DNA of 32,374 nucleotides, taken from assembly GCA_964472345.1 (NCBI GenBank), contig CAYYLB010000007.1, positions 1 through 32,374 on the forward strand. Direction: 5' to 3'. The number at the start of each line of letters is the position of its first letter. The first letter of the stretch is position 1. This document shows positions 28,159-30,945 of the stretch, piece after piece. This DNA is from an uncultured Methanosarcinales archaeon (GTDB lineage Archaea > Nanobdellota > Nanobdellia > Woesearchaeales > JAGLXL01). The notes under the pieces are model-generated. The model did no database searches, was not told where the DNA came from, and worked only from the letters and a program-made list of their open reading frames with translations. The position numbers and the translations under genes were made by a program.

Positions 28159-28812
28159 TTACGAAACTGAAACCTTCGCCAGCTTCTTCTCCTCTTCCTT
28201 TTTCATGATATTCTTCGCGCACCGGTGTGCAAGATGCAATGGCTCGGGGAGCTTGTGCGGCGGCCTGATGCAGTCGCGCACGATCTTCAGTGCCGTGCCG
28301 ACGCCCACCAGATGCCCCGGCGAAATGTACAGCGGCGTTGCGTGCTCCTTGGTCTTCACCTCAAAGCCGCGCAGCTCGCTTTCGACATAGATTTTCCCCT
28401 GCTCCACCGCACCCGTCACGAGGCTCTTCGCGATCCCGATCGTCGGCTTCCCCAGAACGATGCCGAAATGGGACGCTAACCCCAATCGCCGCGGATGCGC
28501 AATCCCGTGCCCGTCGACGAGGATCACATCAGGGCTCTGCTGCAGCTGGTGGTACGCTTCCACCATCGCAGGCATCTCGCGGTACGCCAGGAATCCCGGC
28601 TTGTACGGCACCAGCGCCTGCTTCCGCGCGGTCTGCGTCTCCCGCACTTCCATCGTCTTGGAATCACACACCACAATGCAGGAGATCACTTCCGTCCCGA
28701 CATACGCCTGGTCGATCCCCGCGACGGTTTCCACTTTCCTGAAGCCATCCTGCAAGATGACCTGTGCGCTTAATTTCTGCTGCTCCCGTTTCAGCTTCTC
28801 AAAGTCTATCAT
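28159..28812 (-). CDS. nfi: Endonuclease V
   Basis: VAGIDQAY, PYKPGFLAYRE, LVDGHGIAHPR, PTIGIAK and LPEPLHLAH. Confidence 0.95.
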   Translation of the reverse strand: MIDFEKLKREQQKLSAQVILQDGFRKVETVAGIDQAYVGTEVISCIVVCDSKTMEVRETQTARKQALVPYKPGFLAYREMPAMVEAYHQLQQSPDVILVDGHGIAHPRRLGLASHFGIVLGKPTIGIAKSLVTGAVEQGKIYVESELRGFEVKTKEHATPLYISPGHLVGVGTALKIVRDCIRPPHKLPEPLHLAHRCAKNIMKKEEEKKLAKVSVS

Positions 28813-28900
28813 GTGCAAGAAGGACAGGCCAGAAGCATAAAAAGCTTGCGGAGCTGCGGCGCAGAAGCTTTTTAAATGAGCCCCTGTTTAAGCGCCGCAC

Positions 28901-29052
28901 GCCCGGGTAGTATAGCTTGGACAGCCCAGCGCAACGGCGGCGGGAAACCAAAGAGTATACGGCCCTGCGGTTCACGCAAGCAGCAAGGCTGTGACCGGGG
29001 TTCAAATCGCTGATGACAGGAGCGCGTCAGCGTGACCATCCCCGCCCGGGCG
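28901..29052 (+). tRNA. tRNA-Arg(GCG) with three introns (D-loop 20a/21, 37/38, 59/60)
   Basis: Exons 28901-28922, 28954-28970, 28986-29006 and 29039-29052 splice to a 74-nt cloverleaf: acceptor GCCCGGG/CCCGGGC, anticodon loop CT-GCG-GA, T arm CGGGG-TTCAAAT-CCCCG. Each intron has a BHB-like junction. TATA at 28869-28877 and a T-run downstream. CCA is not encoded. Confidence 0.9.
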
Positions 29053-29116
29053 TTTTTATGCTCATGCTATAAAATATCACCGAAGAAGAAAAGAAGATTA
29101 TTGGGGAGGGTTTGAA

Positions 29117-29488
29117 ATGAAATTTTCTGGGAAAATAAACAATAGGTGGTTTGTTTTTGTTTCTTTATTTTTTGCACTTGCATCTGCAATTATCCTGATT
29201 ATTGTAAAAAAACAGCCCTGGGAGTATTTAACCGCATTTTTTACCGGAGCGTTTTTCGGCAATCTCCCAAAAGAGGCAAAAAAGTGGATTGTGGTCATAA
29301 GTTCCCTGACTTTTATAGGTGCTATAATTTTTGACCCTTCTATTAAGCCATTGCTAGATAAACTGTTGGGAGTAAAAACGGTTGGCTCACTTGGAGGATC
29401 ACTTTTGATTAATTCATTTTTGTTTCTGTTATTCTGGATTGGGTATTCACTCAGTGAAAAAATAAAGGAAAAGCTGGCCGTGGCCTAG
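29117..29488 (+). CDS. AT-rich hypothetical membrane protein downstream of the tRNA
   Basis: 123 aa and hydrophobic, with RBS GGAGG. Composition differs from the flanks. Confidence 0.7.
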   Translation: MKFSGKINNRWFVFVSLFFALASAIILIIVKKQPWEYLTAFFTGAFFGNLPKEAKKWIVVISSLTFIGAIIFDPSIKPLLDKLLGVKTVGSLGGSLLINSFLFLLFWIGYSLSEKIKEKLAVA

Positions 29489-29811: not shown

Positions 29812-30945
29812 TTAGCGCAGCCATTGTTTCTTGAGTTTCTGGAAAGAATCGTTTTCAATCGCTTCTCTTATTGAGGCCATGAGATTGCTGAAAAAGGCGA
29901 GATTATGATAGGTTGCGAGCGTGTACGCGAGCAATTCGTTCGCCTTGAAGAGGTGGTGGATGTATGCGCGGGAGCAGTTCGTGCAGACGTAACAGCGGCA
30001 ATCCTTGTCGAGCGGCCTGGCGTCGGCCTTGAAGCGTGCGTTCTTGATGCGGTAGCGCCACCTGCTGTTTCTTCTGCATTCCGAGCTGAAGATGTAGCCG
30101 ACTCTTGCGAGGCGTGTTGGCAGCACGCAGTCAAACAGGTCAACCCCCTGCTCAACCGCTGCAAAAATATTGTCGACCGCGCCGATGCCGAGCAGGTGCA
30201 CCGGCTTGCTGTCCGGCAGAGCGTCCATCGTCCAGCGCAGGACGCGCGCGGTCTCCTTCTTCGGCTCGCCAAAGATGCTGCCGATGCCGTAGCCGGGAAA
30301 ATCGAGTGAGGAGATGAAGCGGGCGCTTTCCTGACGCAAATCTTTGAATTTGCCGCCCTGGACAATGCCGAACAGCGCCTGGTCTTTGCGTTTCTTTGCA
30401 GCGATGCAGCGCTCTGCCCAGGCGTGCGTGCGCTCGAGTGAGGATGCGGCCGCGTCAAAGGCTGATTCGAAGGGGATGCATTCATCGAGCGCAAAGATGA
30501 TGTCTGCGCCGAGCTGCTCCTGGAGCCTGATGGATCTTTCCGGCGTGAACTCATGCACCGAGCGGTCGATGTGGGAGCGGAACGTAATGCGTTCATCGGT
30601 GACTTTGACGAGGCTTTTGCCTTCTTTCGTTTTGCCAAGGCTAAAAATCTGGAAGCCGCCGCTGTCAGTCATTATTGGACGCGACCAAGACATAAATTTA
30701 TGCAGGCCGCCGTGGTTCGCAATCAGCTTCGCCCCCGGCCGCAGGTAAAGATGGTAGGTGTTCATCATCAGCATCGGGACGCCGAGCTCTTCCAACTGCC
30801 TTGCGGTGAGCGCCTTGACCGTTGCCTGCGTGCCGACGGGGACAAATGCAGGCGTCGTGACAGCGCCGTGGGGGATTTTGATTATTGACGTGCGTGCTTT
30901 TGATGCGGGGTCACGGGCGGTGATTTTGAATGGGAGTGAACGCAT
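29812..30945 (-). CDS. tgt: tRNA-guanine transglycosylase, bacterial (queuosine) type
   Basis: TPAFVPVGT, NTYHLYLRPG, TDSGGFQ, LFGIVQGG, FDCVLPTR and the CxCxxC...H zinc site. 377 aa with no PUA extension. Confidence 0.93.
   Translation of the reverse strand: MRSLPFKITARDPASKARTSIIKIPHGAVTTPAFVPVGTQATVKALTARQLEELGVPMLMMNTYHLYLRPGAKLIANHGGLHKFMSWSRPIMTDSGGFQIFSLGKTKEGKSLVKVTDERITFRSHIDRSVHEFTPERSIRLQEQLGADIIFALDECIPFESAFDAAASSLERTHAWAERCIAAKKRKDQALFGIVQGGKFKDLRQESARFISSLDFPGYGIGSIFGEPKKETARVLRWTMDALPDSKPVHLLGIGAVDNIFAAVEQGVDLFDCVLPTRLARVGYIFSSECRRNSRWRYRIKNARFKADARPLDKDCRCYVCTNCSRAYIHHLFKANELLAYTLATYHNLAFFSNLMASIREAIENDSFQKLKKQWLR

Follow-up and report, generated by a model that had tools for sequence, protein, structure and literature searches.

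A tRNA gene about half of which is intron raises the question of whether it can still give rise to a working tRNA and, if so, which endonuclease would remove its introns. The gene considered here, a tRNA-Arg(GCG) gene with three introns, lies in the window (the whole stretch of DNA that was analysed, 32,374 nucleotides in length), which belongs to an assembly of 1,264,057 bases in 120 contigs, with 56.9% G+C and a completeness rating of 100%. The host is a tiny, Woesearchaeota-like DPANN archaeon of groundwater, and most of the genomes that hold the closest relatives of its splicing endonuclease EndA (66–77% identity) go under the name Candidatus Woesearchaeota or Nanoarchaeota. The label Methanosarcinales, carried by many of the genomes with EndA relatives, is taken to be a submission default.

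Multiple-intron tRNAs are textbook features of the Thermoproteales and of ARMAN archaea. In the Thermoproteales, a tRNA gene can hold as many as three introns of the BHB type, both at the canonical site and elsewhere, and genes with several introns make up more than half in extreme cases. Similar introns have been found there in unrelated tRNAs, pointing to intron spread (Sugahara et al. 2007, 2008; Fujishima et al. 2010; summarised in Fujishima and Kanai 2014, PMC4033280). For DPANN archaea, the survey of Kaneta et al. 2018 (PMC5829648), which included one Woesearchaeota genome, associates alpha4-type EndAs with more tRNA disruption, attributes the trend to the L3 loop (the Nanoarchaea/ARMAN-2 loop), and takes incomplete predicted tRNA sets as a hint of hidden disrupted genes. 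In the N. equitans enzyme, a positively charged loop lies around the catalytic His, according to the structural account in Hirata et al. 2012 (PMC3488258). The type of gene structure described below is already known, and what is notable is its pairing with a plain EndA that is not expected to handle such introns.

Anatomy of the tRNA-Arg(GCG) Gene

The gene and its flanking elements, all on the forward (+) strand, are arranged as follows.

28862-28868, +, purine-rich CAGAAGC, directly 5' of the TATA-like box
28869..28876, +, TATA-like box TTTTTAAA, centre about 28 nt 5' of the gene; a putative promoter element
28901..29052, +, tRNA-Arg(GCG) gene, 152 nt including the discriminator G; CCA not encoded
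28901..28922, +, exon 1, 22 nt; acceptor 5' strand, U8 A9, D-stem 5' strand, D-loop to position 20a
28923..28953, +, intron 1, 31 nt, D-loop 20a/21, relaxed motif
28954..28970, +, exon 2, 17 nt; A21, D-stem 3' strand, A26, anticodon-stem 5' strand, loop C32 U33 G34 C35 G36 G37
28971..28985, +, intron 2, 15 nt, canonical 37/38, bulge-helix-loop form
28986..29006, +, exon 3, 21 nt; A38, anticodon-stem 3' strand, 4-nt variable loop, T-stem 5' strand, T-loop 54-59
29007..29038, +, intron 3, 32 nt, T-loop 59/60, near-strict BHB
29039..29052, +, exon 4, 14 nt; U60, T-stem 3' strand, acceptor 3' strand, discriminator G73
29053..29057, +, T5 run directly 3' of the discriminator; likely an archaeal terminator, at which transcription would end

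Excision of the three introns by coordinates with a script leaves exons of 22 + 17 + 21 + 14 = 74 nt, which ARAGORN identifies as tRNA-Arg(gcg) with stems of 7/4/5/5. The conserved bases U8, A14, G18, G19, A20, A21, G53, U54, U55, C56, A58, C61, and G73 are all in place in the product, and inspection by eye adds U33 and the G15-C48 pair. A first, sequence-only reading of the locus had placed here a gene for tRNA-Arg(GCG) and given its three BHB-type introns the coordinates listed above; with the cloverleaf accepted by ARAGORN and every detail of that description present in the sequence, the description holds, as does its estimate that about half of the gene is intronic (78 of the 152 nt).

Standard finders pass the gene by. 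ARAGORN, with or without its intron option, reports no gene in the unspliced window, Rfam gives no match there at the gathering score, and none of the 20 matches of RF00005 to the whole genome at E ≤ 1 falls at this locus. The expectation that default tRNA finders would overlook the gene is thereby confirmed for both modes of ARAGORN and for Rfam/RF00005. Across the whole genome ARAGORN finds eight tRNAs, or 17 with the intron option, none of which is a tRNA-Arg. No second Arg(GCG) gene was found in the whole genome by ARAGORN, RF00005, or the structure-first scan described below. The gene in the window is the only tRNA-Arg(GCG) gene detectable in the genome, and its product would read the CGU and CGC codons. 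A genome-wide search for other GCG anticodon arms returned at least 849 matches, which are mostly random.

Splice Motifs of the Three Introns

The archaeal BHB motif has a central helix of 4 bp, in which exon sequence directly 5' of the intron pairs with the intron's own 3' end, and each strand carries a 3-nt bulge. Each of the three introns is bounded by this motif or by a relaxed form of it, the predicted cut following nucleotide 2 of the bulge, with 4, 4, and 3 of the four central pairs formed in introns 1, 2, and 3, respectively, and the helices and bulges given by the sequence-only reading are those found in the sequence. Three metrics were used to describe each motif, namely the pairs in the 4-bp central helix, the contiguous exon-side pairs, and the contiguous intron-side pairs, and 200,000 placements of equal length, drawn at random within the window, gave the chance level.

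Intron 1: metrics 4,2,0; all three reached by 0.35% of random placements
Intron 2: metrics 4,5,1; all three reached by 0.0025% of random placements
Intron 3: metrics 3,5,6; all three reached by 0.0035% of random placements

Intron 3 comes closest to the full motif. Its central helix pairs TTCA (29001-04) with TGAC (29033-36) with a single T.C mismatch, the bulges are AAT and CAT, a 6-bp intron helix (CGCTGA 29008-13 with TCAGCG 29027-32) closes the intron, and the exon side is the 5-bp T stem. In intron 2, CTGC (28965-68) pairs with GCAG (28980-83) and the bulges are GGT and CAA; the 3' bulge, CA|A, adjoins the anticodon stem, and the 5' cut falls in a terminal loop. The helix of intron 1 is formed by TTGG (28917-20) and CCAA (28948-51), with the bulges ACA and AGA. 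In the predicted precursor fold, UUGG/CCAA forms. The 3' bulge, cut as AG|A, borders either on a weak helix of 2 bp or on the D stem, and an intron hairpin flanks the 4x3 internal loop that holds the 5' cut. Intron 1 is not a proper BHB, as its 5' cut lies in that 4x3 internal loop and its exon-side helix has only two pairs. The same spliced product could be reached through any of three cut registers for intron 1 and of four for intron 3; the central helix is paired only in the register adopted here, which is that of the sequence-only reading.

Homologs without the Introns and Population Contigs

Homologs were sought by DNA search in the host's own genome (G000) and in 40 relatives of the same order. 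A paralogue, the tRNA-Arg(CCG) gene at G000:C5:8608-8727, has an identical exon 1, and its sequence runs continuously through TTGGAC-AGTATAC, without intron 1; it has two introns of its own, one of 12 nt at 37/38 and one of 34 nt at 59/60. The orthologous Arg(GCG) gene of a different genus of the same family (L003, in genome G007) has a single intron, of 19 nt at 37/38, and lacks introns 1 and 3. Its exon 1 is again identical, and its spliced sequence agrees with that of the gene in the window at 73 of 74 positions (counted by eye). Among other Arg(GCG) genes of the order, L005 has one intron, L013 has a D-loop intron of about 15 nt and no other, and L015 and L019 are free of introns. All six junctions are fixed in this way, because each is defined either by a natural intron-less version or by the canonical position. 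This comparative evidence is the strongest support for the reading given here.

The locus is also found in assembled DNA of public sequencing runs. Contigs from three runs of one groundwater study, one of which is perhaps the source of the assembly, cover positions 28779-29100, 28600-29032, and 28816-29085 with no differences. Seven differences set apart a contig of another study, which spans 28860-29034, and six of them could be located: two lie upstream of the gene, four lie in intron 1, and none lies in an exon. Three of the four variants in intron 1 affect unpaired positions of the predicted hairpin, and the fourth turns a C-G pair into U-G (by eye). In a further contig, which belongs to a different organism, an Arg(CCG)-like gene has a short D-loop insert with the same CCAAAG end.

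tRNA Introns across the Genome

The other tRNA genes of the genome were surveyed, as the sequence-only reading had proposed, with a structure-first scan that was anchored on a T arm and a 7-bp acceptor stem and then looked for an anticodon arm and a D arm. Candidate introns could be 11-170 nt long and lie in the D region, anticodon loop, or T loop; they had to pass a relaxed BHB filter, and a locus was accepted only if ARAGORN took the full spliced product with the same anticodon. The scan of the real genome gave 66 models, 49 of them accepted by ARAGORN, at 35 loci, while a reversed-genome control gave eight models and no accepted one. The gene in the window was re-found independently with the same three introns.

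The 35 loci contain 59 introns, or about 1.7 introns per recovered tRNA gene: 24 at 37/38, 22 at 59/60 (a site occupied in 22 of the 35 loci), three elsewhere in the T loop, and ten in the D region. The loci are distributed by intron number as follows.

0 introns per locus: 4 loci
1 intron per locus: 8 loci
2 introns per locus: 18 loci
3 introns per locus: 5 loci

Introns of any number are present at 31 of the 35 loci, and 23 loci have two or more, so that the gene in the window is typical of its genome. Further genes with three introns are Glu(UUC) on contig C44, Arg(UCU) on C49, and Lys(CUU) on C117. Two of the scan loci, a second His gene on C4 and Val(GAC) on C31, look false because their products are over-long, their introns are long, and they lack a promoter box; when both are left out, 33 loci with 54 introns remain, 21 of them with two or more. 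The scan is blind to introns in stems or in the variable region, and its list is without several expected tRNAs, such as Trp, Cys, Tyr, and Ile(GAU), so the census is a lower bound. An A/T octamer such as TTTATAAA stands about 25-33 nt upstream of 29 of the 35 loci (by eye), the counterpart of TTTTTAAA in the window.

Many of these introns are of a reduced form. One intron-side pair or none is formed in 29 of the 59, and 23 of the 59 are 16 nt or shorter, which makes them bulge-helix-loop substrates. The D-loop introns have helices that vary together with the D-loop sequence (TTGG/CCAA, CCGG/CCGG, CTGG/CCAG, and CTTG/CAAG), and the 3' bulge AG|A was seen by eye in four of the ten D-region introns. 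A corresponding pattern is found at 59/60, where, by eye, a T stands opposite in 15 of the 16 genes with A57, and a C in five of the six genes with G57, the sixth having a T, which would form a wobble pair. Introns are also shared between genes: at 59/60, Met(CAU) and Arg(UCU) carry clearly similar introns, and the introns of Arg(GCG), Ser(UGA), and both Glu genes at this site have in common a TCGCTG start and GCGTG(A/G)C near the end. Because related introns sit in unrelated tRNAs and close relatives differ in intron content, the group is good material for the study of intron spread. A Pfam search of the eight ORFs that neighbour the gene found no homing endonuclease; the domains found there include endonuclease V, a TGT-family enzyme, an amidase, a helicase, and a PIN domain.

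The Splicing Endonuclease and Ligase

The genome encodes the two proteins that the splicing of such introns would call for.

G000:C2:253-786, −, EndA, 177 aa; one PF02778 N-terminal and one PF01974 C-terminal domain; TIGR00324 116 bits
C6, RtcB ligase, 478 bits; two matches in one 994-aa open frame

A second EndA-like gene was not found among 13,350 six-frame ORFs of the genome (phmmer --max), in which the next match had E = 0.51. The beta-subunit model NF007084 matches only the same EndA gene of this genome (E = 0.025), and the sole other match to PF02778 in the genome has E = 0.35. As the assembly is in 120 contigs, a gene in a gap is possible for this genome taken alone. Over 41 genomes of the order, PF01974 has one match in 38, two in one, and none in two; the second match in the genome with two (G008, which was used in tallies only) is a fragment of 42 aa at the end of a contig, and G024 and G033, whose genomes are single contigs, give one match each.

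Among solved structures, EndA comes closest to the catalytic subunit of N. equitans (3IEY_A, E = 1.8e-38) and to the homotetramer of M. jannaschii (1A79, E = 1.7e-34). Residues 7-177 are collinear with 1A79, with two 1-residue gaps, and Y113, H123, and K154 fall on the catalytic triad, which we take to be Y115, H125, and K156 in M. jannaschii EndA. The spacing from the Tyr to the His is the same as in that enzyme. The features tied to broad specificity elsewhere are missing from the protein: the crenarchaeal loop is absent, with a 10-residue gap against 2CV8_A; the N. equitans loop insertion is absent, with gaps of 2 + 4 residues between the catalytic Tyr and His against 3IEY_A; and the epsilon2 three-unit form is absent, the protein having 177 aa with one N-terminal and one C-terminal domain. 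An acidic DDEGD stretch aligns with DADGD of 1A79, in a loop with a role in tetramer assembly there. Judged by its sequence, EndA is of the plain alpha type, and the single gene together with the DDEGD stretch makes a homotetramer the most likely form. An alignment of 19 EndA sequences, made to compare relatives with few and with many detectable tRNAs, shows a collinear core throughout. Five of the eight relatives in which few tRNAs are detected have an N-terminal extension rich in Lys, which is fainter or missing in the ten with many, the start positions being uncertain; the host's own EndA is without it.

The sequence-only reading had supposed that the host would carry an EndA of the Thermoproteales or ARMAN type. 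This supposition does not hold in that form: the one gene found is of the alpha type, and no beta subunit, epsilon form, or specificity loop was found. If the tRNAs work, the enzyme would have to handle such introns, and it is not among the two architectures that have been shown to have broad specificity (PMC5829648; PMC12397907). The intron set itself argues against a strict requirement of this EndA for the full BHB, given the 29 introns with at most one intron-side pair.

Proposed Maturation and Alternative Explanations

In all likelihood the locus is a functional three-intron tRNA-Arg(GCG) gene, whose three introns, of the protein-spliced kind, would be removed by the single alpha-type EndA and whose exons would be joined by RtcB. 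Transcription from the TATA-box promoter would yield a precursor of about 152 nt, in which EndA would cut six sites, each in or beside a 3-nt bulge flanking a 4-bp helix. The partners in the helices would be the upstream exon (UUGG in the D-loop, CUGC in the anticodon loop, and UUCA in the T-loop) and the 3' end of the respective intron. RtcB would then join the four exons, the ends would be trimmed, and CCA would be added. From the sequence, we infer transcription, cleavage, ligation, and use in translation for this gene.

Intron 1 gives occasion for a different view of one part of the gene, in which introns 2 and 3 are spliced by EndA while the 31-nt D-loop insert is kept as an extra arm or removed otherwise, an alpha4-type EndA being unable to cut the relaxed motif. 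The metrics of 4,2,0, the predicted location of both cut sites in internal or junction loops, and the lack of the known specificity loops from EndA are compatible with such a fate, and the published model ties relaxed-motif cleavage to such loops (PMC12397907; PMC5829648). However, D-region inserts of the same architecture are present at ten of the 35 loci, their helix co-varies with the D-loop, and the AG|A bulge recurs in four of the ten; on account of these three features, a shared and selected D-region splice signal is indicated. A retained insert would also part G18 and G19 from A21, and it is absent from close homologs. Moreover, with at most one intron-side pair in 29 of the 59 introns, EndA must handle loop-type sites generally. 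Retention or separate removal of the insert is highly improbable on this evidence.

A former tRNA-Arg gene disrupted by insertions and no longer used would leave a decaying pseudogene, and the fact that half of the gene is insert, together with the weak motif of intron 1, would suit such a history. Decay is hard to reconcile with the standing of the gene as the sole Arg(GCG) gene found, since archaea need G34 to read CGU and CGC. Nor does it agree with the state of the exons, which match the ortholog of another genus at 73 of 74 positions and show no differences among the six located of the seven in the variant contig from another study, or with the intact promoter box and T-run. With introns at 31 of the 35 loci of the genome, the gene in the window is no exception, and we regard a pseudogene as very improbable. 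A chance resemblance or an assembly artefact deserves hardly any credence: relaxed BHB patterns turn up often, the filter letting through about 1% of random placements, but the reversed genome gave no confirmed locus against 35 in the real one, homologs match the exons base for base, and contigs of several runs carry the same sequence.

Relation to Known Systems and Significance

The three-intron gene and its genome resemble the Thermoproteales (PMC4033280) in having up to three introns per gene, several introns at many loci (23 of 35 here), and introns common to unrelated tRNAs. Unlike the Thermoproteales, whose EndA is given there as an (alpha beta)2 heterotetramer with a crenarchaea-specific loop, the host is a DPANN archaeon with one alpha gene that lacks the loop. 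With ARMAN-1/2 (Micrarchaeum; Fujishima et al. 2011, PMC3239211; Hirata et al. 2012, PMC3488258), it shares an ultrasmall DPANN nature and non-canonical tRNA introns with relaxed motifs, but the ARMAN epsilon2 EndA is a three-unit protein with an ARMAN-specific loop, represented by a chain of 395 residues in entry 4FZ2, against 177 residues here. The same distribution of introns over three arms of one gene is met with in a eukaryotic nuclear tRNA gene served by a eukaryotic enzyme, and no relationship is implied by this likeness.

Among the papers listed by full-text searches on Woesearchaeota or DPANN archaea and tRNA introns, Kaneta et al. 2018 (PMC5829648) was the only one to name either group along with such introns. 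Like the DPANN cases that this article describes, the present gene is a concrete instance of a hidden disrupted tRNA gene in the company of an alpha4-type EndA. It departs from the L3-loop account given there in that the EndA here is without the six residues that lengthen the N. equitans loop (PMC5829648).

At E ≤ 1e-5, the Rfam tRNA model detects ten tRNAs in the host's own genome, compared with 7 to 41 in the 40 relatives of the order, and only 12 in one single-contig relative rated 100% complete. Hidden tRNA genes seem to be common in the order, to varying degrees. Annotations of such archaea will wrongly list tRNAs as missing, because the standard finders detect only about ten tRNAs in a genome that is rated complete.

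A broader proposal, which we put forward tentatively and hold to be somewhat less probable than its opposite, is that Woesearchaeota possess one of the most intron-laden tRNA sets known, run by a single alpha-type EndA without the crenarchaeal, ARMAN, or Nanoarchaeum insertion loops to which current structural work ascribes broad specificity. This EndA may gain broad specificity in a way not described so far, or a helper may present the precursors to it. If this is true, the accepted link of endonuclease architecture to intron diversity would have to be revised. Since heavy disruption of tRNA genes goes together in this lineage with one alpha-type EndA that is devoid of such loops, it becomes directly testable whether relaxed introns require a special endonuclease loop, as the rule has it.

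Surroundings of the tRNA-Arg(GCG) Gene

The tRNA-Arg(GCG) gene lies between two genes encoded on the minus strand, with a short coding remnant directly 3' of it:

Window 28159–28818, minus strand: endonuclease V gene, on one flank
Window 29076–29120, plus strand: in-frame remnant ITEEEKKIIGEGLK-stop, with a stop codon before it, read from the sequence
Window 29812–30945, minus strand: TGT-family gene (377 aa), on the other flank

Contigs from many other organisms match 29079–29123 alone, where their summed depth is very high (70–258), and in those contigs the reading continues upstream as ...ELVYKLYGIT. The remnant looks like the C-terminal tail conserved among genes of the restriction-modification methylase type, and a gene or mobile element formerly adjoining the tRNA gene may have left it behind. 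ArcTGT has a long C-terminal part, and the 377-aa TGT-family protein, if it is the archaeosine enzyme, lacks this part.

tRNAs and tRNA-Processing Genes in the Host and Its Relatives

Two further loci of the host genome (G000) concern tRNA decoding and exon ligation:

G000:C44:5638–5764, minus strand: tRNA-Ile, anticodon UAU, two introns, from the genome tRNA scan
G000:C6:6347–9169, plus strand: RtcB ligase, 994-aa open frame, profile match in two pieces

In archaea, AUA is mostly read by a modified CAU tRNA, and the UAU anticodon is known in N. equitans and Korarchaeum. The two RtcB pieces (profile positions 1–55 and 49–426) are about 1.5 kb apart within a single open frame, which suggests a large insertion, an intein or one of another kind, in the ligase gene.

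Among the 40 relatives of the same order (G001–G040), the Rfam tRNA model (E ≤ 1e-5) detects 7 to 41 tRNAs per genome, and only 12 in a single-contig relative rated 100% complete. EndA, wherever found in these genomes, is a single gene of one common build. In several relatives with few detectable tRNAs, EndA may carry a Lys-rich N-terminal extension of 12–27 residues, the start codons being uncertain; the host's own EndA has no such extension.

EndA genes with the possible extension: L106 (G028), L108 (G019), L109 (G025), L110 (G009), L111 (G004)

Intron Sequences Common to Unrelated tRNA Genes

By sequence likeness, the 59/60 introns fall together as follows:

Met(CAU)/Arg(UCU) pair: G000:C3:3021–3061; G000:C49:8335–8375
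Arg(GCG)/Ser(UGA)/Glu group: window 29007–29038; G000:C12:20092–20132; G000:C6:1561–1590; G000:C44:4159–4188

Since Met(CAU) and Arg(UCU) are unrelated tRNAs with similar introns, and the Arg(GCG) intron is similar to those of Ser(UGA), Glu(CUC), and Glu(UUC), there is a hint that introns have spread between tRNA genes. A contig of the public sequencing run X2 joins window position 28921 to 28986 through 31 other letters, and seems to hold an Arg(CCG)-like gene of a different organism with a short D-loop insert ending in CCAAAG, as does intron 1 of tRNA-Arg(GCG) (window 28923–28953); on this evidence, the D-loop intron class is not confined to the host genome.
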